A stretch of DNA of 59,405 nt, filler included, from Jimgerdemannia flammicorona (Eukaryota): the NCBI GenBank assembly GCA_003990765.1. It is 2 parts of 2 records of this genome, joined end to end, with 100 filler letters (N's around TTAATTAATTAA, not from the genome) between each part and the next. Parts side by side here need not be neighbours in the genome. Positions count along the whole stretch, not along the records: positions 1 to 29,662 come from RBNJ01000480.1; positions 29,763 to 59,405 come from RBNJ01000481.1. One strand, given 5' to 3'. Below are positions 13,807 through 59,405 of the stretch, piece by piece. Under the pieces are notes generated by a model that did no database searches, was not told the DNA's origin, and worked only from the letters and a program-made list of their open reading frames with translations. The translations under genes were made by a program, and so were the position numbers. The stretch's first letter is position 1; every line of letters begins with the position of its first letter.

Positions 13807-15658
13807 TAGAGTGCAGTGGGCTTCTTGTCAGTTGGAGATATTGCAGCTAGAATGAGCCAGGTTATTGGGCTGGGAGGATGTAGAAGACTGGAGACTGGAG
13901 TGTGCCTGATTGGAGGTGGAGGAGTTGAAGAGGTTGTTGAGAAAGGAGGAGGAGACTCATGTGTAGGAGATGACTACTAGGTTAAGGTGGCAGGGGTTGG
14001 AGAGGGTGAGAGATCTTCTAAGTATTTATCAAGACTTCTTCAGGCCCAGAGAGTAAGGCAGAGGTGGGATGGAGTGCTTGATGAGAAGGGCTCTTTGGTG
14101 TTTGAAATGTAGTAGATCTTAGATTCTTTAAAGAAGTGATGGAGAGGTCTATAGAGTAAGAAGGAAGGGGGTGCAGATGAGGAGGCTATCAGATATACTC
14201 TAGAGGATTGATATCCTCCAATGGTAGATAGTATTGGTAATCTGACTCTGCTAGTCCAGGAGAAGGAGATTTTATAGATTTTAGTAGCTATAAAATTAGA
14301 TATAGCTTTGAGCAAGAATGGTCTGTCTTGGGACTTTTAGAAAAAGATAGTAGGGGTCTCAGAGATGTTGGAGAAGATAGCAGTACTTGTAACTTTATTC
14401 TTGTGACTGGAAAGTGAGTTGAGAGAGAGGACCTTAGTCTAGTGGTACTGCTATATAAGGATAAGAGTAGGAGAGAGAATTGGAAAATTGACAACTTATC
14501 ATACTCTTGGATATAGACAGGAAGCTGGTCACAAAAGTGCTTGTTGGGAGACTGCAGAAGATAGTACAACAGGTATTGGGTGAGGAGCAATAGGGTTTTA
14601 TTAGAGGCTAGCTTATTAGAGATAAGACAGAATAGGTATATAATATAATTAAGAAGATAAGAGCTTGTAAACTGAATGAGAGATTGATCTTTCTGAATCA
14701 GAAGAAGGCCTATAATCATATTCAGTAAGTCTGGTTAGAGAAGATATTAGATATAATTAGTATTTCTTATTAATTCTGAGTGTCTATAATCTAACTATTA
14801 AAGAATAGTAGAGTAGTACTTATATATAATAGCTATTATAGTACTGCTTTTTTATTATAGAGGAGAGTTTTTCAGAGAGACCTATTTTTCTCTATTTTGT
14901 ATACTCTATCATTGGAACTATTTATATATAGATAGAATTTGCTATAAAGTAACTAAACTCTTAGTTTTTAATATAATCTAGAAGATTGAGATCTTTGTAG
15001 ATAATATAGTAATTGGTCTAAGCTCTATAGTAGATATAAATATACTATGGGTAATGATAGAATAGTATAAGAAGTACTCTGGGACAAAATGTAACTAGTA
15101 TAAGTATGAGACAATAGTTTTAGATAATAGTTTGATGAGTGGAAACATTATTGGAATAATTTTTCCAGCTAAAGAGACAGTGAGGTATTTAGGTATCTTT
15201 TTATCAGTATATAGCTCTGTTTTGTCTAAAGCTTGATGAGAGAAAAAGATTGGTATCTAGAGAGAGACCCTTCAGAGCTAGAGGGGGCACTATATCTCTC
15301 TGGTAGGCTGAGTGTCAATTCTTAATTTTTATTGATTATTCAAGCTATAGTATCTGGTATATTACTTGGATTTTTCAGCCTAGGTAGTAAAGAGGTTATT
15401 GAAGATAGCTAAAGACTAGATCTAGACTAAGAGATGGTATCAGATAGATTAGAAGGTCTTAGTGATACCTATAGATAAAGAAGGTCTTAATCTGATAGAC
15501 TTTTCTAAATAGTTATATTATCTGAGAGCTTAGTGGTTAAAGAGAACTATTAAGCTATAGGGAGATAAGTGAGTACTACTGATGCAGAAGGTCTGAGAGA
15601 TAAGGTTCTTCTCTAGAAGCTCTTTGAGTGATCTACTATTATTGATTAGCCTAGAGAG

Positions 15659-15764
15659 CATTAAATATTTATAGTATAAGAGCTTCTAATAGAGAGTAAT
15701 AAATGAGACTCATTAAATGCTTATAGTATAAGAGCTTCTAATAGAGAGTAATAAATAAGACTCA
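15659..15764 (+). repeat. ~52-bp tandem duplication inside LINE-A
   Basis: cattaaat(a/g)(t/c)ttatagtataagagcttctaatagagagtaataaat(g/a)agact occurs twice. Confidence 0.85.
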
Positions 15765-16141
15765 TTATATTAATTTGCAATAGTGAGATAATGAGAGAGA
15801 GGTATATTAGAGTTCAGCAATGTAGCAGTAAGATAGGCTACTTTGGGTAAATCTTTACTGATTAAATTTAACATAAATACTGAAGTGAAGTACTAGAGAG
15901 AGATAGAACAGAATTTGTAGTCAGTTGGCTAGTAGATAGCTGAGATCAGCAAAGAGTAGAACTGGACTAGTATTTGGTCCTAGAGTCAGAAAGTATAATG
16001 ATAGCTTTCTCTAAAGTTCTAAGTAGTATAATAATGCTTACTGAAGAGAAATATCATATTGAACTTTTATTTAGAGTCACTTTTTCCCTAGTAATAGAAA
16101 GAGTATAATATATAGAATAAGGTATAAACTATAAGCCCTAC

Positions 16142-18172
16142 TGTAAGAGGGTTGCTTTTTAGGGTAACTGTTACGTAGTTCTGGAAAGGTTTTCTGGATA
16201 TTCTGGATGTTCTGGAAGACTGTTTTCTTATGGTCAAGATCAATTTCATATAGAGTACATCCTCTATACTTATTGATTTCAAGATTGGATTGATGTCTCA
16301 ACCAAAGTCCTTTCTTGGACTAGTTCTGGATGTTCAGGATTTTCTGTATTTCAGGAAGTTCAAGAAACTAAGACCAGCTTAGTTGAATTGGCATATCGCT
16401 GCAGACAATACCCAATTAGGAAATTTCGTGATAGGGTTAGGAGTAGGACCTAACAGGAAGCGGATTTACTTAAGAGTGGTTTGTGGGTTATGGAATAGGT
16501 TTATTCGCTATTCATGATATTGCTATACTAGGAATAGTTGTGTGAAGGGATATTGTGGAGAAGTATTCAGGAATGTTCTTGTGTGTTCGAGTCTGAGATT
16601 CTGAGGTCTGGGGGAGGGGGTATTTATACTAGTGAGGGGCTATCTGGACTATGCTGAATATGGATGTAGTACTAAGTGCCTTGCTGAGTTGGAATGCAGT
16701 CATATAGTACAAGTGTGATCTGACATATCAAGAGATCATCTGACTGCTGAGTCAGTTCACAGTCATGTCATATAAGGCTAATCTATCTATACTATGACTG
16801 CTAGACTATTTATAGGTCATAAGCACTATCTGGGTAGTCTTCGATGACATCACTATTGATTGCATCATCTCTGATGAAGTAGTTATCTAGGAATAATGGT
16901 TTGCGGATTACTTCTTCTTGTTCGCTGAGATAATAATACATTGGAACTTCATCTCCATCCCATAGGATAGCATCATCTGTCTCGTATGCTGGATAAGGTA
17001 TTGGTGGGCAGAGGATGGGTGTATTGTCTTTGCTTTTGTCAGATTCACTGTCTGCATACCTTCTATAGGTTATAGTACTATGAGTCGCGGGGTTGTAGTA
17101 AGCTGGTGGCTGTAGTTCATGTCGCTCATACTCAGGTGGTGGAGTTGTTGGTTCGATCTTGAGGGTTGTCTGGAGGTACAGGTTGTGTTCTCCAGTCTCT
17201 TCATTATAATTGAAGTAATCAGGGGTGAACTTGGGTTGGTATTCGTGCCAGTGGTCATTGTTCCAATAAGTCTCATATGCAGTTATAAACTGTTGTAAGT
17301 TCATCAGCAAGGTTGGTGGAGTGATCAGGGTTGGCAGAGATCCTTGGCTTGAGGTCATGTCAGCATCAGAGGGATCATTGTCTTCTGCTTCATCTTCGTC
17401 GAAGTGGATTATATCGTAGACATCCTTCATGGCATATTCGACTTGAGGCATTTGTAGAATATGGTCATCAGGGTGTGAGAAGGTTCTGTCTGTGGTCTGG
17501 ACATATTCAAGGTACTTGTGGTTGAGTTCTTGTATCATGTCATCGATTTGGCCATAGGACAGGGTAGCAACCATTTCACTAGTAGTGACTCAGAGGTAGG
17601 GAATAAAGGTGTTATACTCATAGAAGAGTTCTCGATGTTTGCGGGTGATGAGCTTCTGGTGTTGAGACATCTGGGTAATATCTGTATCGTGGTGATGTTC
17701 GACCATGTCTTCTAAGAGGCAGCCGATCTGGTAGTAGCTTGATATTTGTCCGATCTGGTGGGCCTCGTTAAGTATATTCAGGGTGTTCCATCGGGCTTCC
17801 ACGAAGTAGAGGGGTGCTAGGCTATGGATATTCATGAGGGGCAGAGGGGGTGTGGCTCAGTTAACAATGGCATTCCAAATGTCAGTGTGGATACAGTTGT
17901 AGATCTCAGTGGTCATGTTTGTGTGTTTGGAAGTTGTGATTATTGTTTGTTTTGGTTTTCTGATTTGACGTGTCTCGGTGCTTGGTATATATGCATTTGG
18001 TCCTGATTGGTAAGGTTCCGTTTGTGTAGATCTTGTGTTCTGTGACTTCATATTGACTCAGCCTTGTGCACTGTGACTTCGGTTTGACTCAGCTTTATGA
18101 TTAAGCAGGTGATTTCCAGATTTGTTCAGAGGTCGCATATAATTTCGGTGGCTTGGAGGTTGTGCACTTACA
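16142..18172 (-). repeat. Family-1 3' LTR (2031 bp)
   Basis: Direct repeat of 24695-26725; minus-strand TATAAATA at 16628-16621 and AATAAA at 16505-16500. Confidence 0.97.
16810..18051 (-). pseudogene. U3-encoded accessory ORF (~410 aa), 3' LTR copy, with two in-frame TGA stops
   Basis: ORFs 18051-17857, 17835-17590 and 17574-16810 share one frame. The TGA at 17590 is CGA in the other LTR. Confidence 0.85.
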
Positions 18173-18173
18173 A

Positions 18174-18186
18174 CTCTCCCCTTCTT
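18174..18186 (-). other. Polypurine tract, family 1
   Basis: AAGAAGGGGAGAG, 1 nt before the 3' LTR. Confidence 0.9.
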
Positions 18187-18599
18187 AGCTTTTGACATCC
18201 TCGTCGGGGCGTTCTAATTTGTTCTAGTGTTGTTACACCATTTGGAAGGTCAAAAGTCTGGTAAGGTCCATTTTCTCAGAAAGTGGCATGCTCATAGTAC
18301 AGTTGCCTAATGCGTTGGATTCACATGTTAAAGAGTCATGTGTTCAATGCCGTGCACCGGAAGTGATTCTGACATCATTCACTGCTGGAGAATTTTCTCT
18401 AAGGAATCTTCTTAAATGTCTACGCCTTGTTTCCCACCAGTGGTATAGAGAGAATAGGCTTGCTTTCAGTTTTTTGCTATTTTTCCAGGGATTCGCTATT
18501 CCTGTCTTATTTTGCTGAGTTCTTGACTTAGTACATGATAGTTATAATATTCAGGAGAGTAATATATAGTATATATAGATAGGTGCAGAGTATTTGGTT

Positions 18600-21500
18600 C
18601 TAGTTGTTCAAGGAATCATATTCCTGAACTAGGTCAGTAGCATTCTGGAGATTGGTCTTGGGTTCCCAGATTGCATTGTGGATCAGGTAACCTTTCCATT
18701 TGACAAGGTACTCAGGATGGTTCTTGTTACTGCGTTTGTTGAGAATCTGCTCAACTTCGTACTCCTCTTGGTCATTAATAATGATAGGTACAGGTGGTTT
18801 GGTGGTCTGGTTTGGAAATAGTTTGTCATCATTTTCATTGTATCGCTTGAGACATTGAACATTAAAGACTGGGTGAATCTTAATGGTATCTGGTAGCACC
18901 AATTTGTAGGAGGTTGGAGAGACTTGTGCAATAACTTCAAATGGTCTAATGAACTTGCTATTTAGCTTTGTGGATGGTCTGTGCTTGAGGTTGTCAACTC
19001 GGTATCCTCTGATGTCTAGTAGAACTTTTTCTCCAATATCAAAAGTTTCTTCTTAGCGGTGTTGGTTAATATACTGTGATTGTTGTTCTTGAGCTAGCAA
19101 TAGATTCTTGATGGCAATCTGGCTTAAATTGCGCATTCGGAGTAAGAATTCTTCAACAGCTTTGACTGTGGAGGGTTCTTCAGTGGTTCAGATAAGTGTC
19201 AATAGGGTGTTTGGATTTTGTCCAGTGTTGGCGAAGAATGGGGTCATTCCAAAAGAGGCTTGCTTGCTATTGTTGTAGGCAAACTCAACTGTGGTGAGGT
19301 GTTCATGCCAATCATCTTGTCTGTAGGAGACATAGTTCCTTAGCATTTATTCCAGAGTTCGGTTCATTCTTTCGGTTTGGCCATTGGTTTCAGAGTGAAA
19401 GACTGTGGATAGTGCAAGTTTTATTCCAAGGTGCGCATGGAGGGCTTTCCAAAAGTGGCTGGTGAATTTCGGATCTCAGTTACTAACAATGATCTTAGGA
19501 AGACCATGATAGTGGAAGATGTTGTCAAACAAGAGTGTGGCTATATCTGGTGCTGTTGCAGTAGTGGTAGTAGGCACAAAGTGGGCTTGTTTGCTGAGGT
19601 AGTCCACAAAGACAACAATTGCATCTTTCCCATTCTTGGTTCAGGGTAGTTGTACAATGAAGTCCATAGAGATTTGTTCCCAATTTGCGGATGGTACTGA
19701 GATAGGGTGGAGTAAGCCAGGTTTTGCTAGTGTTGAGGTCTTGTTTCGTTAGCAGGCATCACAGAAAGTGATGTAGGTTTTGAGCTGATCTGCCATGCAG
19801 GGCCAATAGAAGTTTCGGGAGATAACTTTGTAACATTTATTAAATCCTAAATGTCCAGCTGTAGGGGCATCATGACATTCGAATAGGATAGTCCTTCAGA
19901 GGTCTCGGTTGTTTGGGACATACAGTCTGTCCTTGTAGTAGATAGCATTGTCCTTGAGTTGGTATTGATTGTACCAGATATGCTTGTCAGTATCATCATT
20001 GTTCAGGATTTCTCGGAGTGCTTGAGCTTCCTTATCATCAACACATGCTGCAATGATTTGTTCCATGATAGTATTGGTAACCAAGGTCAGAGTTTGGATA
20101 ACCTCTTCAATTAGTGGTCTGGAGATTGCATCGGCAACAATATTTTCCTTGCCAGGGTGGTACTGGATTTCGTAGTCAAAGTTGGTGAGAACTTTCATCC
20201 ATCTAGCTTGCTTTCGGGAAAGGGTAGCCTGTGTCTTGATGTTGACTAATGACTTGTGGTCGGTTAATACAGTGAAGTGTGCTCCTTCTAGATATGGTCG
20301 CCATTTGATCAGAGTGTCTATGATAGCTAGCATTTCCTTCTCGTAAGTTGCATAGTTGATTTCGGCATCATTGAACTTGCAGGAGTGATAGGCCACAGGG
20401 TGTCCTTCTTGCATGAGCACTGCTCCAAGAGCTAGGTCAGAGGCATCAGTGGTGACTTCATATGGTAGGGCAGGGTTTGCTGCTTGAAGTACTGGAGTGG
20501 TTATCAGGGCATCTTTCAGCGCTTGGAAGGCAGTATCTTGTTCAGATCCCCAATTTACAAGATTGTTGAAGTCTTTCTCTTGTTTCATGGTCCAAGGTTG
20601 TTCTTGTTTCTTACTGTGCTTGGTCATTTGGGTGAGGGCAGTAGCGATTTTAGCAAAGTTGGCAACAAATCACCTGTAATAGTTTGCTAATCCCAGGAAT
20701 GACTGGAGGTCTTTCAGCTTCTTGGGTGTGGGCCAATCTTTGATTGCAGAGATTTTGCTGGGGTCCACTTTGATTCCATTTGGTGTGACAATGTGTCCAA
20801 GGAATTGAATTTCTTTCAGAAGAAATTCGCACTTGCTGAGTTTTGCAAAGAGTCGGTTTTCTCGAAGTTTCAGTAGTACTAGTTCAAGGTGTTCAAGATG
20901 TTCCTCCAGGGTTTTGCTGAAGACTAGGATGTCATCAATATAGATAACAACGAATTTGTCCAGGTATGGATGTATAATGGTATTCATCAGTATCTGGAAG
21001 GTTGCTGGAGCATTAGTTAAGCCAAAGGGCATAACCAGGAACTCGAAGTGTCTATAGCGAGTTCGGAAAGCTGTCTTGTAGATGTCTTCTTCTTTCATAG
21101 CAATTTACCAGTAACCATTTCACAGGTCAAAAGAGCTCATGAATTGTGGGTTGGTGAGCCTATCGAATATTTCATCAATCCTTGGTAGTGGGCAACAGTT
21201 CTTGATGGTCTGTTCATTGAGATCGTGGTAGTCAATGCATATTCACAGGTCTCCTCCTTTTTTGACAACAAAGAGGACTAGTGTACCATAGGGTGATATG
21301 CTGGGTCTGATGAATCCTTGTTCTAAGAGTTTGTCAATTTTCTTCTTGAGTGCATCAATTTCTCTCAGAGACATGTGGTAGATTGACTTGAAGGCTGGTT
21401 TGGCATCTGGGATAGTCTTGATTGCATGGTCTACTGCTCGTTTGGGAGGTAGGCCTTTTGGGAGCTTCTTTGGGAATATGTCTCGGAATCTCTGGAGTAG

Positions 21501-23732
21501 TGGTCTGACACGGCTGTCAACTTTGGAAAAATCTTCTTCAGAGTTCTTGGGTTCTTCTTTGGATGGTCGGATGGAGATGGCAAAGAGAGGGCATTTCTTG
21601 GCCAATTTCTTGAGTTGTAGCTTATTGATGTGGGTGATCTTTAGTCCAGGGTCACTAGAGTTGAGTGAGTCCTTTTCGCCTTGTAGTTTGAAGTTGTGGC
21701 GTCCTTTCTTGATGGTCAGAGAATGGTTTACCCAATTGATCATGGAGTTCTCTTGTTTTAACCATGGAGTCCCAAGGATGATTTCATTGTCAGGAAGTGG
21801 TACGATTTGGAGGGTAACATGTACTCAGTAGTTGCCAATTCGGAAGGGTAGATTGCGGACTTCTTTGCTAATAACATGTGAGGTTCCATCAGCTGTAGCA
21901 ACTGCTTGAGTTTGCTGTACTGGGGAGATGAAGACCTTGAGTCTGTTGGCTGTCTCTTTGTTGATGAAGTTGCCTGAGGCACCACTGTCTATCATAATCT
22001 TGACAGGTGCTCCATTAACAAAAGCCTTAAGGGTGAGTAGTTTGTCTGATCCAATGCTGGTGATTTCAGCTATAGGAGTCTTTCTTCTATTGATTCTTCT
22101 TTGAGCCAGTTCATTGATATAAGAGAAGTAATCATCAATCATTCGGGAAGAGTACATTCCAATACCATGAGGGCATCAGCCACTTGGTATATATCCATCT
22201 TCTATCTTCTTGTAGAATTGTTCTTCTTTGCTCATGGTAGGTTGGGCTGGGGCCTTGTTTGATGAACCAAATCCTTTGGATCCTCGGATGGTGGGCAGTA
22301 GTTCAGGGACTTCCTTGACTATCAGGGTTGACTCGATTTTTTCAAATAGAATCTAGGCAATGCAGAAACCAATAGGGATCTTGAAGGGTATCCAACTGTG
22401 GTTTCGAATGAGGACAATGATTTTGCCTGTATAATCTTCATCAATGACTCCTCCTTCTACTGAGAGTCCTTTCAGCGCTAGGCTGCTGCGACAGCATATT
22501 CTTCCAACATGTCCTTCAGGGATTTGGATACTGATTCCTGTATAGACTTGTTTGACTTCTCGGTTAGAAACTGTAGCTTCTTCAGCTGCATACAGATCAT
22601 ATCTGGCTGCTTTTTGACTTCCTTTGGTTGGGGCCTTAGCAGTTTGTCTTAACTTGACAAAGTCTAGTGTTCTGGTGGTCAGGTTGTTGAGGTGGTGCAG
22701 AGTGGTAACAGTTGCTCATATTGCTGTTTGGGGTTTTCGGTTGGGGTAGGCACTGGCCATGTGTCCTGTCTTTCAGCAATAGAAGCATGCTCCACTTCTT
22801 CGAAGTTTATTCCTTTTGCCTTCAGTAAGTTTCTTGAAGGTACTGGACTGGGTGGGTTCAGGATTTCTGGGTGTCCAAGAGGTGGATGTGGAGGGAGCTC
22901 GGGATGCTTCATGCTTGGGTTCTTCTTTCTTGGTCCAAGTCCTTTCCTTGTTGTTAAATTGCCTTCGGGGCAGAATTGGTCCAGCTGTTAGGATTCGCTT
23001 GACCATGGTCTTGATTCTTGCTAGGCACCATTGTTGGTGATCACAACCAACTGGGCGGCCTTGTTCTCGGATTTTTCTAGTAAGCTATTCAGGCAGGGCA
23101 TCAAATAAATGGTCTGCTCTTGTACCATTTCGTGCTTCGTCATTGGCAATGTATCCTAGGCCAACAGTGTTCAGGAGTGACTCGAGTTTTGTACAGAAGG
23201 TTTTAAATTCTTCTTTGCCATGTACATCGAATTTGAGATTGCGGAGTTTTACTCAAGATTCGACAATTATGGTCTCGCTGCGATATTGAGCAATCATGAG
23301 TTATTTGAGTCCAGGGGCTACAGGATGGGCTCTATATCCTGGGGCATTGTTTGCTGCATTCTGAGCAACTACTGCAGGTCAGGTATCCCATGTGAGAGGT
23401 TTTTCAGGAAGGGTTCGCCACCATTCTTCGGTAGGTCCTTAGAAGAATATAACAACTCAGCAGACATAGGCTGTAGTTGTAGCAAAGAGTTGTTCCAGAG
23501 TGTGGTCTTGATTGTTTGTCAGAATGCAGTCAGCAACTCGTTCATTGGTCCATTAATTGGCTTCAAAGTTGGTGTCAACTACACTAATGAAGCTTTGGAC
23601 TTCTTGTGCAGTACCATTGAAGGTAGGTAGGCTCAGATTTTTGGTAAGTCGGGTCTGTTCGGCTAAGGCAGTAATGGTTGCTGCCATTATAGCTACTTGG
23701 GCTGTGAGATCCAGAATCTGTTGGTTCACCAT
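18600..23732 (-). pseudogene. gag-dUTPase-pol polyprotein, apparently one frame, broken by nonsense transitions
   Basis: Zn knuckle CFYC*KTGHMASAY(C) at ~22750-22790; protease IMIDSGASGNFI; RT KTAFRT...[13 protein letters not shown]...YIDDILVFS; RNase H VTTDASDLALGAVL...YEKEMLAI...TDHKSL; integrase HHCC and ISMDFIVQLP; GPF motif; chromodomain EYEVEQIL...YLVKWKGY...WEP (18600-18770). Confidence 0.95.
22260..22670 (-). pseudogene. dUTPase domain between the Gag Zn knuckle and protease (family 1)
   Basis: All five trimeric dUTPase motifs: AARYDLYAA, RSSLALKG, GGVIDEDYTGKI, CIA*IL, RGSKGFGSS. In frame with the upstream Zn knuckle. Confidence 0.93.
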
Positions 23733-24679: not shown

Positions 24680-24691
24680 CCACTGCTACCA
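24680..24691 (-). other. Primer-binding site, family 1 (TGGTAGCAGTGG; possibly initiator tRNA-Met)
   Basis: Starts 3 nt after the 5' LTR with TGG. TGGTAGC resembles tRNAi-Met 3' ends; host tRNA not available to confirm. Confidence 0.75.
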
Positions 24692-24694
24692 AGT

Positions 24695-28663: not shown

Positions 28664-28703
<40 letters not shown>

Positions 28704-28705
<2 letters not shown>

Positions 28706-48400: not shown

Positions 48401-50684
48401 ACTACTCCTAGTCTTGATAATTCCAGCATGGTTCTCTAGCAGCTTGACTCCAATTCCAGTACCAAGTAGGGTAGTGGTCTGTGGTTCAAGAGTAGTATCT
48501 TAAATGTTGGCAAGATCCATTCCTATGACTTCTTCAGTCTTGTATTCTGGGATCTTGGCTTTGGGGTGAAACTTCTTAACCTTAAGGGTGATATCTTGTT
48601 CTTGTTCCTCCTCATCATCACTGTCAGCCTGAAGCTCAGGGGGCTGGTCATCTTCTTCAGCTTTCCTTTTTACTTTGGCAGCTTCTTGCTCATATTTCTG
48701 TTGGCAGATTTTCCTGACTTCACTGATACAGGACCAGCAGTCATTCAGGTGTTCAGAGTAGTACATCCTAGTACCATGAGGGCATCTTCCTTGAGGGGCA
48801 TAGCCATTGATGATCTTATTGTACCACTGCTCATCTGTGAGCTTGGGTGTCTTGTTCTTGTTCTTATTCTTATTCACCAAGTGCATGAAGACCTCTGTGT
48901 CCTCTTCATCTCCTTCCTTCATATTGGATAAGACTCCTTTGTAGACATTGATAGAGACTCATATCTTTCTTCCTCTATAGTTGATCTGCATCTTCTGGAC
49001 ATTGAGGTCAATGATGGCCTTGGTCTTGTAAAATCATTGATTGCTAATGAGGATGTCATAGTTGGTGGTACTTGTAACAATCATATCTACTGGGATGGTA
49101 GCTCCTCCTATCTTGATGGGGACTTCCCAGATTTTGCCAAGGGGGGTAGCTCATATACTATCTGCTATAACATAGACTATCTTGGTGGACTCTTTAATGT
49201 CCCAGCCTAGGCAGTCAATTGCCTTCTTGCTTATGAGGTATCTTCTGGTACTAATATCAATGATGGCATCAAAGATATAGTCTTCAATCTGACATGGGGT
49301 ATAGGCTGATATCTTGTGCTGGTCTTTAGATTCTTCACCTAAGTTTTTGGATTCTTTCTATACATTGTGAGCTTCTACAATCTTGTACTCTTGATTCTTA
49401 GTAATAGTTGCAAGTCCTACTCTCAACTGCTGTCTGAAGGCAGAGACTTCAGCTAGTTGTCCAAAAGTAGCATTGACCTTCTGTTCCTTGAGGTCCTTGT
49501 AGATATCATACTAGTAGATCTTGGTCTTGTGCAGCTTCTGTTCTTTCTTGCTTTCACTTTCTCCTGAGACTAGAGTAGTGTCTTCAATGATTTGGTGAGC
49601 AGCTTCATCTAACTCCATATCTTGATCAATCTCCTCAGGTTGAGTCTTGCTTTGAATAGTGACAACTGGGGTCTTCTTTGGTCTTCCAACTGGCTTGCTA
49701 TTGCTTTTCTTGTCATAGGACTTGGACTGGGTTCTGGTATCTTCAGTAGCAGGGTAGAATTCAAGCTTCTTGTAATATTCTTTATCATCAGTATCGCCAA
49801 TTTCCTCAATGACTACTGCATTAGTTTATTCTCTGGTTCTGCTAGCATTGCTTAGTTGGGCTTTGCATCTTGTTTCAGTCATACAATTCTTGCATAGTGG
49901 CCTTCTTCTCTACATCTGAAGCATGTGATATTGCATTCTTCTGTAGCAGCTGCAAATCTCTGCACTGATCTCCTGTTGGCACTTCAGACTTCTCTAACAA
50001 CATTACTAAGGTGTGCAGTTATCTCGACAAACTGCTTGGCAAGTTCTTCCACTGGTTCAGCTTTGGCTGCCTTAGGGATAGGTGGAGATGGTTATCGTTT
50101 ACAACTGTGGTAGATATGATACTAGTTGGCTTTGATGGCTCCATCTTGATACTAGTTATTTTCTCCATTAAATATTTGGCAGGGTGTCTGGTAGTCTAAT
50201 ATCTCTGTACAAAGACCACTTTCTGATCAAGTATCAATGTAGCTGGGGTAGACCAGATTGCTAGGGCAATTTCAGGGTGAACTCCTTTGAGAAAGGTTGA
50301 ATCTACTATTTGTTCCTTGAAGGTATCATCATAGTCAGCCAGGACAATCTGATAGCAGATTCAAGTATAGAATGAGTTGAGATCTTCACTAAGTCCCTGG
50401 CAGATAGTATTGAGTTGATTCTTGAGAGCTTGCTTGATCTCTTCAGTATAGTATGTTGTTCTGAGGAAGGCCTTCATGTTGGCAAGTTTGGCTGTACCAT
50501 TATTGGTGATAGTGGCTATATTGAACTTGTCTCTGGCAGATCCTCTAAGGCTGACTGGTAGAAGGGCCAATTGTGCATCCACACCAAGGGCTCATATGGT
50601 GGTGAATTGTTCAAAGTCTTTTATAAAGATCAGAATTGACTCTTCAGTAGTATATTTATAGAATGTGGGGAGATATATTTCCAT
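45466..50684 (-). pseudogene. Family-2 gag-pol polyprotein with many stops
   Basis: ATG 50684; Zn knuckle CFRCREEGHYAR (~49890-49925); protease AIIDIS (~49250-49270); RT RLCIDYKKLN...LDLFSGFHQI...MPFGMCNAP...YIDD; RNase H LQTDTSAIGLGAVL; integrase IAIDIIGPL...TDYGTEF...AYHPQGNGQTERTN; terminal GPF module. Confidence 0.93.
48176..48592 (-). pseudogene. dUTPase domain between protease and RT (family 2)
   Basis: LKVKKFHPKAKIP, GMDL, TRSSLAK, GGVIDSNYTSEI, RIGQMLI, RGEQDFGSTG. Confidence 0.93.
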
Positions 50685-50804
50685 CTTGTCTTGAATTCTT
50701 GCAGGAGTGACTCTTGTAGTCAGAGTAGTTGTTGTAGGGGTTGTTCATTTTTCAGCTTGAGAGTGAGGAATTTGTCTTGAATCACCAGTCAATGGGCACC
50801 AAGT

Positions 50805-52369
50805 TGTTACATAGTGGTCACTGAGTCCTTCAAATATGCCAGATTCTCTTCAAGGTATATCTTTTAGACTAACTCAAGTTTATTATAAGCAAGTTCTTAT
50901 TAGAGTACCTTCCTAAGGTCTTATAGTCCTCAAACTTCTTATCTTTAACTATCTTGTTATCTCTTAGATTGCTTGCAAGGGATTGTGTGCAAGTGAACTA
51001 GAACTGACTTTATTTCAGAGAAAATAAGAAGAGTATTTATATAAAATATAATTCAATAGTTGCTAAGATATAAAGCTAAATATAAATTCCAATAACTAAA
51101 ATAAAATACCAGAACAGGAAAAACTGCTAAGTTCCAGAGTTGGTACTAATGGTTATATAGGTTCAGGATGCTAGTATAATTTAGTATTACATCAGAATAC
51201 TAGTACTAGCATTATTCAGTGTTACATCAAAATGCTGATACTGGCATTATTCAGTATAACCAAGGAACTTAGAGCAGAATGTTCAAGACTATATGGGCTT
51301 TATCATCAGAGGTCAGAATGTCTTCAAAGGAGATGAGGTCTATGAATGTCTCATCTGTCTCATTGTTATCATCATATAGGTTGTGCATTTTGCATACTTC
51401 ATGTACTTCATCACACATCTCATATATGTCATACAGAATGATATCATTGCCAATAATGTCATTATATTCAGCAGCAGAGAAATCAGGGGGCTCTCCAATC
51501 TATGGGGTTCTCTTCCACAAAATAAGAGACAAATATAGAGTCTTGAGGGGGTCTAACCTGGATGCTTGGGCCTTAGAATACTGAGATCAATCTTTACAGG
51601 AATTGGTCTGGGTTGTCCTGAAGAATGGGATACCAGAAGTCTTCTACTTTATCACTATTGAGGGTGATAGTGGACTGGGCTTCTGTAGCCACTCTTGCTT
51701 CTAGTGTATTGATATAGTGGGATGACAGGTCTCTGAAATCTGAGACTCTAATATACTCCAAGTTGGAGATTGACCATAGTGTATGCCTGAAGATCTGATG
51801 GATCTTCTTAGCTGTCCTTGTTTCGCATATATCTATGGGAGTGGCATTTTGTAGCTCTTGAGTGCTGGCCTGTAGAAACTCCCAGCAGAGGAGGTTTCCT
51901 ATTTCATATTTCTGCCATATTTGGAGGCATTCAGTAGTAATGGTGATCCTGGTTTCCATTTCACAGTAGTAGAGGATATAGTGATAAGAGTCACCAGTAC
52001 CCAGATTGATACTAGGAGTCCTTCTTGAGTGAGTCCTCATGGCTCTTCTGATGTCTTGGAATATCCTTTTTTCAACCAAAGTACCTTAGTGATTCCTTGA
52101 CCTTGAGGTTTGGTGGGCAGCAGGCATTTCATTTACAGTGAGTCTTTGAGCTATTTTGAGATTGATGGGTCTTATTGGTTGCTATTACTGCAGTTCCTTG
52201 ATCCTTCTTTTATATTTCTCAAGATGCTTGTACTATAGTCACAATAACTCACAGTTGGTTATCATTACTTATCTCATATACCATATAATCTTCTTATGCT
52301 CTAATCTGATGGCTTGTAAGGAAAGACTGTCTTCTATACTGATGTCATCATTCTGGGGCCATCATTACA
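50805..52369 (-). repeat. Family-2 5' LTR (1565 bp), containing the second copy of the U3 ORF (52265-51269, with a 1-bp frameshift near 51488)
   Basis: Ends TGTTAC...TTACA on the plus strand; 161-aa open segment 52079-51594; TATAAATA at 51041-51034. Confidence 0.94.
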
Positions 52370-52679: not shown

Positions 52680-54596
52680 ATGGATGGCAATGATTGATCT
52701 GGTGAGCGTACTGGCCAGGGGGGTGACGGCGCCTTTGGCTGGCAGCAGGTGGGGAAGAGGGGAGATGGTTTGGGGATACCAGGGGCCTCGATGGCTAGCC
52801 GGGGCCCCAGCAGTGGAGGGAGGGGAGGTCTGAGGCAGAGAAGAGGGGAGCGGTCGACCTTTGCTGACAAGGTCAGGATGGGGAAGATGGCTTCTGGGCT
52901 GGATAGTTGGCTGGGACTGGGGAAGGCATCGATGGCTACTGCCGGGGGTCAGAGAGATACACCCCAGGGTACTGCTGGTGGTAGGGAAGGGGCCGGAGTA
53001 GGGGCTGGAGATGTGACTGCTGATGGGGCTGTGACTGGGGATCTGGCAAAAAATCCAGATGTGATGGCGGTCAGCAATTTGGGACTTGGAGGGGGCACAA
53101 GGCCCGGGGACCTGGCAGATGGGGTGACGGGCATGGTGTTGGCCCTGTTACTCAAGAAGTCGAGGTCTGAATTCGCAGTCACGATGTGCTTTCGGGGCTT
53201 GGCAGTGACAGCGAGAATGATTTTGGGGCTGGTGGTGCAGGAGGCTAAGGGAGCGGCGTCGGTAAAGTTCTTGAGGGGAAAGGAAGGGGTTGAGGTGGGG
53301 TTTGAGGAGGAGGACGCCTTGTTGGCGGCTATAGAGAAGGGGGTGATAGTTGGTGGGGTTGTGGTCCCTATGGCCCGGTGTATGTGCTGGGACCCCCAGG
53401 TGGTACAGTTGACCATGTTGGACCTCCCTATAGTGTCGAAGGAAAGGACCAGGGAGTTGGTTGTGGAGGCGATCAAGGAGTATGGCAAGATTGTGGATGT
53501 TGGGTTCAAGGTCTGGGAGGGCACAGAGCTTAGGACTGGAGACATCGATGTCAGGGTGCGACTGGCTGGAAAGGAGAATATGGGGAAGTCAAGGGACTGG
53601 CCAGCAGCACTGAGGTGGGGATAGGTGGAGTGTAAGGTCACTAGGGTGAAGGGGACTCAGGAGGAGGAGGAGGATCTGTTGGAGGCTCTGGAGGATCTGG
53701 AAGGGGCAGTTGCGAGGAGGAGATTAGCCTGGAAGGAGTTTGAGATCAGGACAGTAGTGGGGGAGGTGGATGGGAAGAGGGTTCAGATGGAGAAGGGGGC
53801 CTGGGAGAAGTTGCAGGGGAGGAAGATTCAGAAGGAGTTGTTAGCGAAGTTGGGTGGGGGTGGGGCTATTGGAAGCTCTGGGGCGAGGGCTGCAGGGTTG
53901 CAGGAGAGCACCTGGGCTGAAGGGGGAGAGATGGCCCAGGGCGGGGCGCAGATTGGAGTCAGAGAGGGGTGGGAGGACAACTTAGAGGTGGATGCTGAAA
54001 TGGGAGAAGGTGGGCACCCTCAGTATAGTGTTCCAAATGGGGCAGGAGGTGAGGAGGAGCTGATGGATGTGCCAGATGAGGAGTGGGATGAATCAGTGAG
54101 GAGGAGCGCACTGGTGGACCCCGAGGTGGATGGGGGACAGATTGCTCAAGGGGTGGCGGAGGCAGTAGATGAGGAGAAGTGGATGTGGAAGACCCTGGAA
54201 GGGGTAGCGGCTGAGGAGCTGGGGGGTGAGGACTTCAGGGTGATGGAGGAGAGGCATTGGAAGGAGATTCTATGTGGGGAAGAGGTGCCAAGGAAGATGA
54301 GGAATGAGATCCTGGCTGTCCTTCTGGAGTCGGTCGAGTATCAGGTTGATGATCAGCGAGAGGAGGAGCTTAGAAGGATTGTGAGTGACCGGGCACTTGT
54401 CTTGTGGAACTCGAGGAAGGGACTAGAGAAGTGGCAAGCAGTCTGCTTAGATTACAGGGTGGATATGGAGGAGGTGGACAGGGTGGAGTATCAGGAAATC
54501 TTGGGGGCACTGGATGCTCGGGATATTGCAGAGGGTGAATTGGAAGCTGAGCAGCTCTTGGACTTGGCGAGGGATGAGATGAGCATGGAATTATAG
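52680..54596 (+). pseudogene. LINE-D ORF1 (~638 codons, two in-frame stops)
   Basis: ATG 52680, TGA 52695 and TAG 53622 are in one frame. RRM-like region (QLTMLDLP...IKEYGKIVDV...TGDIDVRV) followed by an acidic tail. Confidence 0.8.
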
Positions 54597-54627
54597 GTTG
54601 AGGTCTCTTTTACAATTTCTATTCAAT

Positions 54628-57600
54628 ATGAACAGTACAACAAGGATATTCTCATTGAACGTTAATGGGTTACGGGGGGCGGCTAGGAGGAAGTACATCT
54701 TTGGTTGGCTTCGGGGTCTGGATGCGGACCTCTTCTTGTTACAGGATGTTCGGTATAATGCAGATGTGGATTTACAGGATTGGACTAAGGAATGGGGGGG
54801 TGCAGCAGTTTGGAGGGAGAAAGTGGGTATTCTTGTTTGGAAAGGGATGGGGGACATTGGGGACATTGGACATTGGGGGTCATGGGTGGTGTGGGGAGTA
54901 TGGAAGAGGCCTGGATGGGGCTTGCTGATGGTTGGGTCTTGTTACTGCCCGGCTGAGAGAGGGGAGAGAGTGGATTGGATTCGCAGGTTGAAAGAGGCTG
55001 GTTTATTGGGAGAAGTTGGGTTAGACTGTATGGGAGGGGACTTCAACATGGTATGGGATAAGGAGTTGGACAGGACTGATGGAGAGAGAGGTATGCGAGG
55101 TGAAAGTGGTGGGTTGGTGGACTGGTTGGAGATGGAAAGGTTGTGTTCTTTAGTGGACTCAGGGAGATATTTTTGGGCTGATCGGTGGGTGTATACCCAT
55201 TGGGCAGCAGGACTGGGCTCTAGGATTGACTGGGTTCTAACGGCAGAGTATTGGGGAGCAGATGTCTGGATGGTGCTGGGAGTCATATGGTGTCTATGGT
55301 CTGATCACTGGGGGTTGCTTGGAGGGGGGAGGTTTGGGGGAAATGAGGATGGGCCTGGACATTGGCGGCTAAATTCTTCCTTGTTGAAGGATAGGACATT
55401 GTGGGAGGGTTGGAAAGCAGAGGTGGTTGGCATTATCGGCAGGTGGCGGGATCAAGGACTGGCGATTGGGGACCACTGGAGAAGGTTGAAGATAAAGACT
55501 CAGGGGTATTGGAGGGAAGCGGGGAAAGGGAAGTGTGCTCAGCAAAGGCAGTGGGTGATGTGGGCCTCGCGGCGTTTGGCGGTGCTCATGGAGAGATGGG
55601 CAGGTGTGCCGGAGGATAGGGCCGAGACTGATTGGCGTATTGCAAGGATCTGGCAGGAGGTAGAGGAGCTCAAAGGGGTGCTTCGGAGGGAGGAAGAGGA
55701 GCAGTTGCAGGGGATGGTGGCCCGCTTGTGCTGGCAGGGGCTAGAGGAAGGGGAGAGACCTACTAGGTTCTTGTCACGGTTGTTACAAGCATGACAAACG
55801 AGGCAGTAGTGGGAGGGAGTTTTGGATGAGAATGGTGAGCTGGTGGTGGGGACTCCAGCAATTTTGGGCCTTTTGCATTCCCAGTGGGAGAACCTTTGGA
55901 GTGAGGATGAAGGGGGACTGGATGCTCAGGACATTGACAGGCAGCTGGGGGATTGGCACCCGGACCCTGCCATGGGACTTGGGGCATTGGGGGACCTGGT
56001 GAGTGGTGAGGAGATTTGCAAGATGGTGGCCTTTACGAGTAAAGGGACAGCCCTGGGAGAAGATGGACTCCCCTGGGATTTTTGGCAGAAGATGACAGGG
56101 GTGCGTGAGATATTAGAGGAAATGATGGCTATGTGCAATGAAGTTCTTCGGTCTGGTGCCTGGATTGGGGGTCAGCGCTTGGGGCTGGTCTCCTTGCTAT
56201 ATAAGAACAAGGGCAGGAGGGAGGATTGGAAGAACTGGCGGCCGATCATACTTCTGGACATGGACCGCAAACTGGTGACGAAAATCTTGGTGTTGCAGTT
56301 GCAAGGGATTGCACAGCAAGTGCTTGGTTTGGAGCAGCATGGGTTTGTCGGTGGTCAGTTGATTCGTGATGGAATGGCCTGGGTTCATGGAGTGATTGAG
56401 GGGGCCCGGGCTACAGGGGTGGATGGCAGATTGGTGTTTCTGGACCAGGAGAAGGCTTATGATAGAGTGTGGAGAATATGGCTAGAAGGAGTGCTGAAGC
56501 GGATTGGTATCCCCCTGGGGTTCCGAGGTTCATTGATCAGACTCTTGGAGGACAGTCAGGCGGCATTGGTCATCAATGGCCACTGGGGGGTGACCTTCCC
56601 CCTGGGCTGTGGGGTGCCACAAGGGGACCCCTTGTCACCCATATTGTATGCTCTTTCCCTAGAGCCACTACTGGACAGGATTCGGCATAAGATTGGAGGT
56701 TTGGACATTTTGGGGGTAAACTGGAAGGTGGGGGCCTTTGCTGATGACATGGTGGTCAGACTGGGTTCCTTGGAAGATGTTGGGGAGTTGTAGAGGACAG
56801 TGGAATGGTATGAGCGGGGTTCTGGTGCTAAACTAAACTGGCATAAATGTGAGACGCTGGTGCTGGGTGCTGGAATTGTAGGAGGTGATGTTATTGGGAT
56901 GGTGGTTCTAGCTGGTGAACCAGTGTGCTACTTGGGGATCTACTTCTCGGTGTTCAGATCTCTTCTTCCCTGGGCATGGTGGGACCGTAAACTGCTAGAG
57001 TGGGGCGATGTCTTGATATGGTGGAGAGGTCGGCATATGTCCCTTGCCGGAAGGGTGATGGTGTTAAATGTGTACTGGATGCCAAAGCTGTGGTATGTTG
57101 GATATCATTTGGATTTCCCACCATGGGTGGTTAAGGGGTTGTTGAAGATGGCAAGGTCGTGGATTTGGGGAGGGCAGTGGAGCCAGGTTGGCTGGGAGGT
57201 GCTCACACTGCCCTTGGAAAGAGGTGGACTGGGCTTAGTGGACTTTACTAAGTGGCTTTTGTGTCTGAGAGCCTGGTGGCTAAGGAGGGCGAGTGAGCTT
57301 AGAGGTCGGGAGTGGGTGTCACTCATGCAGAGGTTGTGGGAGGTTCGATACTCCCCACGTGGTGGCTCCGGTGACCTGCTTGCAATGGTGGCCATGGATG
57401 GGAGCCGGAGGATGCGGTTTACAGGCTTTTGGTCGAGAGCAGTGGATGGAGCTAGGAAAATCGGCCTTCGGTGGTGAGGTGATGAGGCCGAGGAGGTTTG
57501 GGGACCGCAGATATGGAGATGGGACAGACTTCTTTTAGGTGGTGTTCTGGTGGAGGACTTTCAGCTTGGCGAGGGTCTTGAGTGTCTGCGAGGCCTAGGT

Positions 57601-58165
57601 GGAGACCTGTGGCCTGAAGCCTGGCAGAGGGTTGGAATCAGGAAAGAGTGGGATTGGAATGGGCTCTGGCTTTGGAGCAAAAGGGTGAGGCAGTGGCTGC
57701 CCCCCAAGTTCTGGTTGGCATGGTAGTGGATCCTTCGGCGGAACATGATGCTGAACTATCGATCAGGTCACTTGGTGGATGGTGGGGTATTCAAGTGCAA
57801 GGATTGCTTCGATGTTGGTCAGGAGGGAGGAGTGGTACAAACGCCTGAACATTGGCTTGGCAAGTGCGAGATTTTGGGGGAGTTCTGGAGACGTATAATG
57901 GACAGGTTAGGGTTGGGGGCTGGGGGAGGGGAGGGAGGGGGGAGATGGGGAGAGCTTTGCCTGCGGTTGGTGGGTGGGGTCGGGGATGAATGGCTGACCC
58001 TTGGTTGGGCCTTGGCCATGTGGGTTGGGTTGGCGGGGCATTGGGTGCATGTATTTGAGGATGGGTGTCGGGTCGGGGTTAGTGAAAAGGTGATACGGTG
58101 GGAATGGTTGCTGTTGGACATTTTAAATAGCTGGTGGCGGGGTTGGGGTTTGGGTGGGGGGCACC
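54628..58165 (+). pseudogene. LINE-D ORF2: apurinic-type endonuclease, reverse transcriptase and C-terminal Zn motif; several nonsense mutations
   Basis: SLNVNGLR, LLQD, GGDFN, SRIDWVL, SDH; NWRPIILL, FLDQEKAYDRV, GVPQGDPLSP, AFADD, YLGI, ERGGLG; CKDC...TPEHWLGKC. Confidence 0.95.
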
Positions 58166-59405
58166 TGTAAGAGGGTTACTTTTTAGGGTAACCATTACGT
58201 AGTTCTGGAAGGGTTTTCTGGAAGTTCTGGATATTCTGGAAGACTGTTTTCTTATGGTCAAGATCAATTTCGTATGGAGTACGTCCTCTACGCTTATTGA
58301 TTTCAAGATTGTGTTGACGTCTCAACCAAAGTCCTTTTCTGGACTAGTTCTGGATGTTCAGGATTTTCCATATTTCAGGAAGTTCAAGAAACTAAGACCA
58401 GCTTAGTTGAATTGGCATATCACTGCAGACAACACCCAATTAGGAAATTTCGTGATAGGGTTAGGAGTAGGACCTAACAGGGAGCGGATTTACTTAAGAG
58501 TGGTTTGTGGGTTATGAAATAGGTTTATTTGCTATTCATGATATTACTATACTAGGAGTATTTGTATGAAGGAGTATTGTGGGGAAGTGCTCAGGAGTTG
58601 TGTTCGGATTGTTCAAGTCTGTTCGAGTCTGAGATTCTGAGGTCTGGGAGAGGGGGTATTTATACTAGTGAGGGGCTATCTGGACTATACTGAATATGGA
58701 TGTAGCACTAAGTGCCTTGCTGAGTCGGAATACAGTTACGTAGTACAAGTGTGATCTGACATGTCAAGAGATCATCTGACTGCTGAGTCAGTTCACAGTC
58801 ATGTCATACAAGGCTAATCTAACTATACTATGACTGCTAGACTATTTATAGGTTTAGGCACTATCTGGGTAGTCCTCGATGACATCACCATCAATTGCAT
58901 CATCTCTGATGAAGTAGTTGTCTAGGAAGAGTGGTTCGCGGATTACTTCTCCTTGTTGGCTGAGGTAGTAATACATTGGAACTTCATCTCGTCCCACAGG
59001 ATAGCATCATCTGTTTCGTATGCTGGATAAGGTGTTGGTGGGCGAAGGATGGGTGTACTGTCTTCGCTTTCATCAGATTCGCTATCTGCATACCTTCTAT
59101 AGGTTACAGCACTATGAGTTGCAGGGTTGTAGTAAGCTGGCGGCTGTGGTTCAAGTCGCTCATACTCAGGTGGTGGTGTTGTTGGTTCAATCTCGAGGGT
59201 TGTCTGGAGGTACAGGTTGTGTTCTCCGGTCTCTTCATTGTAGTTGAAGTAGTCGGGGGTGAACGCGGGTTAGTATTCGTGCCAGTGGTCATTGTCCCAA
59301 TAAGTCTCGTATGTGGTTATGAACTGTTGTAAGTTCATCGGCAAGGTTGGTGGAGTGATCAGGGTTGGCAGAGATCCTTGGCTAGAGGTCATGTCGGCGT
59401 CAGAG
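58166..59405 (-). mobile_element. Family-1 LTR, copy 4, truncated by the window end; contains the C-terminal part of the U3 ORF (stop 58854-58856)
   Basis: Starts TGTAAGAGGG, collinear with 16142-17370; retains more CpG than the other copies. Confidence 0.96.

Follow-up and report, generated by a model that had tools for sequence, protein, structure and literature searches.

In Neurospora crassa and other Pezizomycotina, RIP introduces C:G to T:A transitions in repeated or transposon DNA only, with a build-up of nonsense mutations and of AT content, and specificity is set by the base 3' of the C, the order in Neurospora being CpA >> CpT > CpG > CpC. The transposons of Pucciniomycotina carry a hypermutation of TpCpG, in which a 5' T is preferred. 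The specificity of methyltransferase-fold enzymes depends on the 3' neighbour, and known AID/APOBEC enzymes derive theirs from the 5' neighbour. DIM-2-dependent RIP in Neurospora requires DIM-5 and HP1, according to a preprint (bioRxiv 10.1101/115501), and a study of Zymoseptoria tritici reports a mitotic C>T mutator of methylated transposons that Dim2 promotes, with >98% of the changes at CpA and CpG spared, an outcome described there as RIP-like outside meiosis (PMC8016269). RIP-like mutagenic defence is at present considered to be confined to ascomycetes, some basidiomycetes having a counterpart centred on CpG. PMC8647823 states, citing another paper, that Mucoromycotina had yielded no RIP signatures, and a kingdom-wide k-mer screen places RIP-like signatures only in four ascomycete classes (PMC12543289); these negatives agree with the expectation of the first-pass annotation that such a process would be poorly documented in Mucoromycota. 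Here we describe a genome-defence-like mutation pattern that, as far as the literature we consulted extends, has not so far been described for this branch of the fungi.

The pattern was analysed in a single 59-kb window (the whole stretch of DNA studied) of Jimgerdemannia flammicorona, through three main comparisons from two transposon families and one tandem pair. The source fungus belongs to the Endogonales, within the Mucoromycota, and is not an ascomycete, which settles a placement that the annotation had left conditional. Its genome, 240-Mb in size as quoted in PMC7928374, is transposon-rich. The window contains a host gene, RPC1, that served both as unique-DNA control and as marker of host identity; in tblastn it covers residues 14-1474 of P0001, a protein named as the RPO31 of J. 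flammicorona. The remaining features are listed in the table. Element A interrupts element X and leaves it in two pieces, 13807-16136 and 26731-28703 (0 and 3 CpG, respectively); the similarity of element X to element Y, and likewise to the LINE of 52.4-58.2 kb, is 65-75%; element Y matches the LINE at 66-67% and element X at 65.5%. The N runs of the scaffold gap occupy 29663-29706 and 29719-29762. When the family-1 RT/RNase H ORF was used to scan metagenomes, only two distant relatives were returned, L001 and L002, whose 42-46% identity made them unsuitable for deriving a mutation spectrum.

Table. Features of the J. flammicorona window, in order of position.
Feature	Position	Strand	Remarks
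RPC1 (RNA polymerase III largest subunit), host gene	914..7679	-	tblastn match and Pfam Rpb1 domains
AT-rich tract, 22% GC	10396..12350	.	0 CpG; sharp edges at 10395 and 12351; CpG-normal host DNA on both sides
Unique left flank of nest	12351..13794	.	57 CpG, normal CpG
Element X TSD, left copy, 12-bp, GATTTCATTCCA	13795..13806	+	Read directly; identical to 28704-28715
Element X, old non-LTR (LINE-like) retroelement	13807..28703	+	Poly(A) 28667-28703, then 12-bp TSD
Element A TSD, CCTAC	16137-16141, 26726-26730		Intact, 5-bp
Element A, family-1 Ty3/gypsy retrotransposon	16142..26725	-	Protease, dUTPase, RT, RNase H, chromodomain
Element A LTRs, 2031-bp each	16142-18172, 24695-26725	-	Four-LTR alignment
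Element X TSD, right copy, 12-bp	28704..28715	+	Identical to left copy
Unique right flank of nest	28716..29662	.	37 CpG, first at 28736; ends at scaffold gap
Element Y, old LINE-related copy	29763..35457	-	0 CpG; reverse orientation relative to LINE
Element B, old truncated family-1 copy	35458..42238	-	LTR 40201-42238; no CpG; 33% GC
AT-rich tandem duplication	42301..43142	.	Copies 42301-42667 and 42776-43142
Family-2 Ty3/gypsy element (dUTPase, RT, RNase H)	43541..52356	-	LTRs ~43541-45087, 50809-52356
Younger LINE (endonuclease and RT)	52698..58164	+	56% GC; CpG O/E 0.29
Copy 4 (C4), family-1 LTR, cut by window end	58165..59405	-	CpG O/E 0.52

Within the window, transposon DNA has been subjected to a cytosine-to-thymine mutator whose effects accumulate with the age of the element and whose order is set by the base 3' of the C, CpG > CpA >= CpC >> CpT. 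The loss of CpG is extreme and has sharp limits. Positions 30001-42000 hold 0 CpG against the ~397 expected, and 30001-52500 hold 9 against ~763. Element A has a CpG O/E of 0.37, and the 8.8 kb of the family-2 element retain 8 CpG. In the old elements CpG O/E falls to 0.00-0.04 and TpA O/E reaches 0.89-1.19, compared with 1.04 and 0.73 in host DNA, as the annotation had noted of the older copies. Host exons, introns and unique flanks, by contrast, retain a CpG O/E of 0.85-1.05: the RPC1 exons stand at 1.05, the 1459 bp of the gene outside the tblastn matches (roughly its introns) at 0.85, and the left flank (12351-13767) at 0.95, with a TpA of 0.73. The flank CpGs closest to the nest, at 13767 and 28736, lie within 21-28 bp of the 12-bp TSD of element X, both copies of which are unmutated. 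The proposal that the flanks keep CpG close to the TSDs thus holds; their description as the halves of a pseudogene was not confirmed: 18 ORFs of at least 40 aa in the nest flanks, and 7 other ORFs, contained 0 Pfam families and a homologue search with one flank ORF found none. The AT-rich tract at 10396..12350, with dinucleotide O/E of 1.29 for CT/AG and 1.02 for TA, is probably a fully decayed old repeat. Such residual C as the old elements contain is found in CpT (CT/AG O/E 1.29-1.76, compared with 0.89 in host DNA), an observation that is independent of any alignment. Classical RIP indices, applied with their usual thresholds, mostly raised no flag on the mutated regions; a mutator of this kind would show that such indices overlook signatures fed by CpG, since each CpG that is lost replenishes the pool of CpA and TpG.

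Differences between copies are overwhelmingly transitions, as had been claimed for the family-1 LTRs. Between the two LTRs of element A there are 131 transitions and 5 transversions over 2031 sites, and between those of the family-2 element 198 and 4 over 1564 sites, a 26-fold and a 50-fold ratio, respectively; the tandem pair (42301-42667 and 42776-43142) shows 70 and 2 over 367 aligned bases. The other family-1 comparisons display the same bias: 88 transitions and 13 transversions over 1228 sites for A_lo and C4 (98 and 15 for A_hi and C4), 362 and 44 over 2030 sites for A_lo and element B (356 and 46 for A_hi and B), and 195 and 25 over 1240 sites for C4 and B. The TSD of element A is perfect, and its LTRs therefore started out identical. 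No clear TSD was recognised at the LTR ends of the family-2 element, and its LTRs may therefore not have been identical when it inserted. The individual sites cited in the annotation are present in the sequence: in the graded series copy 4 has CTACGCTT, the 24695-26725 LTR CTATGCTT and the 16142-18172 LTR CTATACTT, the four-LTR alignment contains GTACGTCC, GTATGTCC and GTACATCC at a neighbouring site, and the terminal TTACA has become TTATA in copy B. It should be emphasized that, with LTR divergence almost all hypermutation, clock ages derived from total divergence would be badly inflated.

To assign context, the ancestor of two copies was taken to carry C or G at every transition difference, a rule that presumes direction, and the neutral spectrum of unique DNA was approximated by controls inside the LTR pairs, namely transversions, T>C changes and CpT sites. 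Hits per site-copy in the element A LTRs numbered 64/288 at CpG, 42/590 at CpA, 20/426 at CpC and 3/522 at CpT, or 22%, 7.1%, 4.7% and 0.6%; by simple arithmetic the per-site rate at CpG works out at ~200 times that of transversions. This order recurs in family 2 (CpG 38/80, CpA 105/488, CpC 41/334, CpT 13/440) and in the internal region of the old copy B (104/176, 262/714, 137/547 and 74/665). By Fisher's test, CpA exceeds CpT with an odds ratio of 13 (p = 5e-9) in element A and 9 (p = 3e-19) in family 2, and CpC exceeds CpT with odds ratios of 8.5 (p = 5e-5) and 4.6 (p = 6e-7). The non-CpG changes that the annotation described as common are thus real and specific to context, and its central claim, a hypermutation restricted to repeats that extends beyond CpG, is upheld with respect to both CpA and CpC in repeats and transposons. 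The non-CpG component differs from that of Neurospora RIP: CpA is affected, but not on its own, CpC being mutated too and CpT spared. Comparison of the younger LINE with elements X and Y was rejected as a test of the spectrum; the copies are too diverged (66-75% identical, with many transversions), and the contexts were flat (CG 29/78, CA 65/313, CC 82/397, CT 64/259).

The effect of the 5' neighbour is modest, with T disfavoured; in element A TCG is the least mutated CpG trinucleotide, at 15/108, the other three ranging from 14/60 to 19/60. The pattern resembles that of Pucciniomycotina in being a RIP-like, CpG-centred C>T mutation of non-ascomycete transposons, but departs from it both in this aversion to TCG and in the involvement of non-CpG contexts. 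Only 1 CpG is left per family-2 LTR, and, by a hand calculation, this loss exceeds what the CpG:CpA ratio of element A predicts, such that two separate processes may be superimposed.

We regard transposon-targeted cytosine methylation followed by deamination, with DIM-2-class methyltransferases as the likely agent, as the probable source of these mutations, although by no wide measure of confidence. Once integrated, transposon copies are hit by the cytosine-to-thymine mutator on both strands, up to the element boundary; putative DIM-2-class (DNMT1-superfamily) enzymes would methylate cytosines of transposon DNA or heterochromatin, and the modified or enzyme-bound cytosine would then be deaminated, with a result akin to RIP that dispenses with the RID enzyme. 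The influence of the 3' neighbour accords with an enzyme of the methyltransferase fold. We infer both that the agent is a methyltransferase and that it is targeted by chromatin instead of by the pairing of homologous copies; a chromatin trigger may be suggested by the complete erasure of CpG and the sharp edges, a weaker argument on which we do not rely. According to PMC9963178, RID-1 is confined to Pezizomycotina, and the Endogonales possess DIM-2-like homologues. For J. flammicorona strain AD002, its Dataset S1 lists three proteins classed as DIM2 (JGI 471264, 479070 and 483080), all of which have BAH and C5-methyltransferase domains, together with three proteins of the KMT1/Clr4 class and two of the HP1 class; among occurrences 71-184 of that dataset there is no J. 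flammicorona row for DNMT1, DNMT5 or RID. The Dim2 mutator of Zymoseptoria offers a partial likeness, C>T in transposons at the non-CpG context CpA, in contrast with which CpG is the most mutated context in J. flammicorona and CpC is also hit. Several considerations count against the methyltransferase reading. Neurospora DIM-2 prefers CpT, according to a review (PMC13297926), which, like the CpA preference of the Zymoseptoria mutator, does not match the order seen here; and if DNMT1 and DNMT5 are truly absent, the upkeep of CpG methylation is unexplained. A more specific version, which we advance tentatively and consider rather unlikely, is that Endogonales run a RID-independent equivalent of RIP, in which DIM-2-class enzymes guided to H3K9-methylated or small-RNA-marked transposon chromatin would actively deaminate CpG, CpA and CpC for as long as the element is alive.

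It could be argued that the locus instead reflects a true RIP-like process, in which duplicated DNA is recognised by homology and mutated in bursts, probably at a particular life-cycle stage, without recourse to transposon chromatin; DIM-2-class enzymes could still be used, and DIM-2-dependent RIP is a precedent (bioRxiv 10.1101/115501). All the mutated DNA is repeated within the window or transposon-like, unique DNA escapes mutation as far as the very ends of the elements, and the two LTRs of a pair bear even loads, of 69 and 60 hits for element A and of 99 and 99 for family 2. The properties of canonical RIP set out above, from confinement to repeats through nonsense mutations and AT enrichment to the role of the 3' base, all recur in J. 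flammicorona. CpA, however, is not the dominant context, there is no leakage into the flanks, and strand clustering is inconsistent: in a strand-runs test with context-weighted simulations the four LTR copies gave P = 0.68, 0.011, 0.99 and 0.72, three thus lacking the clustering that single-strand bursts would be expected to leave. CpG is, moreover, fully erased even in copies ~80% alike, where a homology-dependent process should stall with divergence, and RID is reported absent outside Pezizomycotina, and thus in the Mucoromycota (PMC9963178). We therefore view recognition by homology as unlikely.

Editing of transposon DNA or cDNA by an AID/APOBEC-like or other free cytidine deaminase appears improbable. 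The extreme excess of C>T and G>A is the sole point in its favour. It is the LTRs of a single integrated element that differ, so the changes arose after reverse transcription, both strands are mutated at similar rates per site, and it is the 3' neighbour that sets the rate.

Ordinary decay of methylated CpG on top of background mutation, the non-CpG changes being nothing special, is more improbable still, although the locus has features of it. No context is mutated more often than CpG, which has been erased from old copies, and the depletion, in which CpG turns into TpG or CpA, is restricted to transposons; likewise, where CpG decays in vertebrates, Basidiomycota and Rhizophagus irregularis, transposon CpG becomes TpG or CpA and unmethylated unique DNA retains its CpG, and CpG-methylated transposons are documented in Rhizophagus, also of the Mucoromycota (PMC8647823). 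In J. flammicorona, however, CpG loss is complete and the excess extends to other contexts. Within one stretch of DNA and one span of time, CpA is mutated ~12 times and CpC ~8 times as often as CpT, 473/577 of the changes specific to copy B fall at non-CpG sites, and the 26-fold and 50-fold transition excesses count against this reading too. With C4 as outgroup, 29 of the 32 polarised non-CpG changes at CpA and CpC were C>T (CpA, 18 against 2; CpC, 11 against 0, with 1 other), as were 3/3 at CpT, and at most 10/68 of all C4-polarised changes could be T>C or A>G; indeed, 16 of the 20 CpA hits in the part covered by C4 are at sites without CpG ancestry in that copy. An artefact of assembly, alignment or ancestor reconstruction, to which the presumed direction of the ancestor rule and the scaffold gap within the window might point, is the least credible explanation, given the direction confirmed by the outgroup, the gap-free alignment of the element A LTRs over 2031 columns, the sparing of CpT in the alignment-free profile and the recurrence of the pattern in independent comparisons.

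A transposon-confined, context-specific C>T mutator in J. flammicorona would extend the phylogenetic range of RIP-like defence and would offer, outside Ascomycota, a natural test of the mutagenic capacity of DIM-2-type enzymes. Should the Endogonales indeed run a RID-independent defence, it would represent a RIP-like mutator outside Dikarya that screens based on composition have overlooked, and would suggest that the mutagenic use of DNMT1-superfamily enzymes predates RID.

The host, J. flammicorona, lies outside the ascomycetes, in the Endogonales (Mucoromycotina, Mucoromycota), as borne out by a 277-aa exon ORF (2368-3198, minus strand) that is a 97% match to J. flammicorona RPO31/RPC1, the runner-up being only 52-59% identical. 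In tblastn, residues 14-1474 of this protein map to window positions 7679-914. The map of the elements was obtained by self-comparison and Pfam scans of the window.

Host and transposon features of the window
Feature	Position	Strand	Remarks
Host genes	to ~10395		
ABC-transporter ATP-binding domain fragment (Pfam ABC_tran, E = 1e-6)	9356-9649	+	in CpG-normal host DNA, immediately ahead of the AT-rich tract
AT-rich tract without CpG	10396-12350		
Unique island, left	12351-13794		
Element X, old non-LTR element, poly(A) tail	13807-28703	+	intact 12-bp TSD GATTTCATTCCA
Element A, family-1 Ty3/gypsy, nested in X	16142-26725	-	2031-bp LTRs, TSD CCTAC
Family-1 LTR open frame, stop to stop	16810-17589	-	259 aa
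Chromodomain, family 1	18603-19052		C-terminal
dUTPase domain, family 1	22356-22715	-	
Family-1 LTR open frame, stop to stop	25372-26409	-	345 aa
Unique island, right	28716-29662		stops at scaffold gap
Element Y, old LINE-related copy	29763-35457		
Element B, old truncated family-1 copy	35458-42238		
AT-rich tandem duplication	between element B and family-2 element		
Family-2 Ty3/gypsy element	43541-52356		TSD not recognisable
Family-2 LTRs	43541-45087, 50809-52356		1 CpG left each; at least 40 per LTR reconstructable
dUTPase domain, family 2	47909-48499	-	
Younger LINE	52698-58164		
Long ORFs of younger LINE	52698-57477	+	five ORFs
C4 (copy 4), fourth family-1 LTR			truncated at window end

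In both Ty3/gypsy families protease and RT are separated by a dUTPase domain. The 2-kb LTRs of family 1 are unusual at such length in containing an internal ORF; the two open frames, on the element sense strand, belong to no Pfam family and may represent an LTR-borne accessory gene, or chance. In the younger LINE the first two ORFs share one frame and the last three another, with a single frame change near 54583-54596 and short stop-containing gaps separating the ORFs; the element appears only lightly damaged despite a CpG O/E of 0.29 at 56% GC. The 2-kb AT-rich tract (22% GC, no CpG) has abrupt edges with CpG-normal host DNA on both sides, and is probably a transposon relic mutated past recognition.

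Differences between repeat copies are dominated by transitions. The cleanest case is the LTR pair of element A: the two LTRs were identical when inserted, and across 2031 ungapped sites 131 transitions but 5 transversions now set them apart. For the LTR pair of family 2 the counts are 198 and 4 (1564 sites), and for the tandem pair 70 and 2 in 367 bp. Transitions predominate in every pairwise comparison of family-1 LTRs, and the graded example sites reported in the first-pass annotation were all found in the four-LTR alignment. Transversions and T>C or A>G changes serve as internal controls, as they accumulated alongside the C>T changes in the very same sequences. The former amount to ~0.12% per site-copy in the element A LTRs (5 in 2 x 2031) and the latter to at most 10 of 68 polarised changes; by our arithmetic, changes in element A exceed transversions per site ~60-fold at CpA and ~200-fold at CpG. 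The evidence base is one window and two transposon families, the second without a clear TSD.

To assign hits, that is inferred C>T (or G>A) changes, to a sequence context, the insertion-time state was set to C or G wherever a transition separates the LTRs of a pair.

Hits per site-copy (one site in one copy) by dinucleotide context
Comparison	CpG	CpA	CpC	CpT
Element A LTR pair	64/288 (22%)	42/590 (7.1%)	20/426 (4.7%)	3/522 (0.6%)
Family-2 LTR pair	38/80 (saturated)	105/488 (21.5%)	41/334 (12.3%)	13/440 (3.0%)
Element B, 4729-bp internal alignment	104/176	262/714	137/547	74/665

The hypermutation thus reaches past CpG, as had been proposed: CpA and CpC exceed CpT in both element A (odds ratios 13 and 8.5, respectively) and family 2 (9 and 4.6; all p <= 5e-5). 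In the 4729-bp alignment the apparent hits of element A are flat, at ~5-6% in non-CpG contexts and 10% at CpG, which is ordinary lineage divergence wrongly polarised by the C/G-ancestor method. A 5' T is mildly disfavoured, with TCG hit at 15/108, whereas the remaining CpG trinucleotides range from 14/60 to 19/60. By hand calculation, CpG loss in family 2 exceeds that predicted from the CpG:CpA ratio of element A, and the CpG and non-CpG components may therefore be separate processes. The retroelements are strongly strand-skewed, with GC skew reaching +0.5 or -0.5 (14001-26000, 30001-36000 and 52001-58000), and gypsy-element sense strands are C- and A-rich; this skew looks intrinsic to the families rather than made by the mutator, because per-site hit rates are similar on both strands.

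Plain CpG decay, as an alternative reading, is at odds with the excess at CpA and CpC. Polarisation with C4 as outgroup gave 18 C>T changes against 2 in the CpA class. The CpC class gave 11 and none in the opposite direction, with a different state at one further site, and in the CpT class all three changes were C>T. In the CpG class there were 25 C>T changes against 8, the contrary changes plausibly reflecting parallel losses in C4. Within the part covered by C4, 16 of the 20 CpA hits lie at sites that are non-CpG in C4 too, and thus these hits are not leftovers of CpG decay; the CpA hit rate is 16/316 at non-CpG sites and 4/28 at former CpG sites. The alignment-free profile of the old elements displays CT/AG O/E of 1.29-1.76, compared with 0.89 in host DNA, and TpA O/E of ~0.9-1.2 compared with 0.73, as expected if the remaining C sits in CpT. 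An artefact is at odds with this profile, the outgroup check and the gap-free alignment.

The mutations are limited to the transposons. Between 30001 and 42000 there is no CpG, against ~397 predicted from present base composition, and between 30001 and 52500 there are 9 against ~763, whereas CpG O/E is 1.05 in host exons. The stretches of RPC1 outside the protein matches (1459 bp, roughly introns) have a CpG O/E of 0.85. The halves of element X retain 0 and 3 CpG, and its 12-bp TSD copies are identical although they contain CpA and CpC sites. As had been claimed for the unique flanks of the nest, CpG persists close to these TSDs, the nearest lying 28 bp ahead of the left copy (13767) and 21 bp beyond the right copy (28736), and the two unique islands have CpG O/E of 0.95 and 1.03. 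Element X lost its CpG after inserting, while the DNA that it split did not, and its flanks were spared regardless of coding status. CpG O/E is 0.37-0.52 in element A and C4, 0.02 in family 2 and 0.00-0.04 in B, X and Y; the load increases with element age, as judged from composition and nesting. The proposal of a repeat-restricted, RIP-like C->T/G->A hypermutation extending beyond CpG is therefore confirmed as an observation and supported as an interpretation, while its mechanism we can only infer.

In Y, B and family 2 the ratio (CpA+TpG)/(ApC+GpT) is 1.13-1.41 and the composite index is <=0. By classical RIP-index thresholds most hypermutated regions of the window score 'negative', since lost CpG keeps replenishing the CpA/TpG pool, and RIP screens may have missed the J. 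flammicorona pattern through such index-negative regions. The suggestion that a RIP-like process, or one driven by non-CG methylation, is poorly documented in Mucoromycota agrees with two reports: PMC8647823, citing Venice 2020, states that RIP signatures went undetected in Mucoromycotina, and repeat-directed k-mer signatures were confined to four ascomycete classes (PMC12543289, in the main text of which 'Endogon', 'Jimgerdemannia' and 'CpG' do not occur). Among the matches listed for Jimgerdemannia methylation, Mucoromycota RIP and Endogonales transposons, the pattern was not found described. Transposon-directed cytosine hypermutation is of a known kind, but is undocumented for the phylum Mucoromycota in the literature searched.

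With respect to mechanism, deaminase editing of cDNA is at odds with the differences between LTRs of one integrated element, with strand symmetry and with dependence on the 3' neighbour. Methyltransferase-fold enzymes read the 3' neighbour of cytosine. Such an enzyme, working on transposon chromatin, would generate C>T either through deamination of 5mC or by direct enzymatic deamination, and fits the 3'-neighbour dependence, the hits on both strands, the action after integration and the sharp limits at element ends. We know of no specificity that matches the order CpG > CpA >= CpC >> CpT. A runs test for same-strand clustering, the pattern expected from one-strand bursts, gave no signal in three LTR copies (P = 0.68, 0.99 and 0.72) and a nominal one in the fourth (P = 0.011). 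As CpG erasure is complete at ~80% likeness and there is no leakage into the flanks, we lean towards a trigger that is independent of continued similarity between copies.

Candidates for such an enzyme are listed in PMC9963178, according to which RID-1 is exclusive to Pezizomycotina and Endogonales have DIM-2-like homologues. In its Dataset S1, three proteins of J. flammicorona AD002 (JGI 471264, 479070 and 483080) are classed as DIM2 and bear BAH and C5-methyltransferase domains, while KMT1/Clr4 is represented by three entries and HP1 by two; among the matches listed (71-184 of 184), J. flammicorona is absent from the DNMT1 and DNMT5 blocks. In Zymoseptoria tritici, Dim2 promotes mitotic C>T mutation in methylated transposons (PMC8016269), although the mutator described there spares CpG, the context hit most in the window. 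Similarly, Neurospora DIM-2 is reported to prefer CpT (PMC13297926), in contrast to the window, where CpT is hit least. With two precedents, Zymoseptoria Dim2 and the DIM-2-dependent RIP of Neurospora, which requires DIM-5 and HP1 (bioRxiv 10.1101/115501), a mutagenic role for a methyltransferase is nevertheless plausible, and we propose with moderate confidence that a methyltransferase mechanism underlies the transposon hypermutation in the window.
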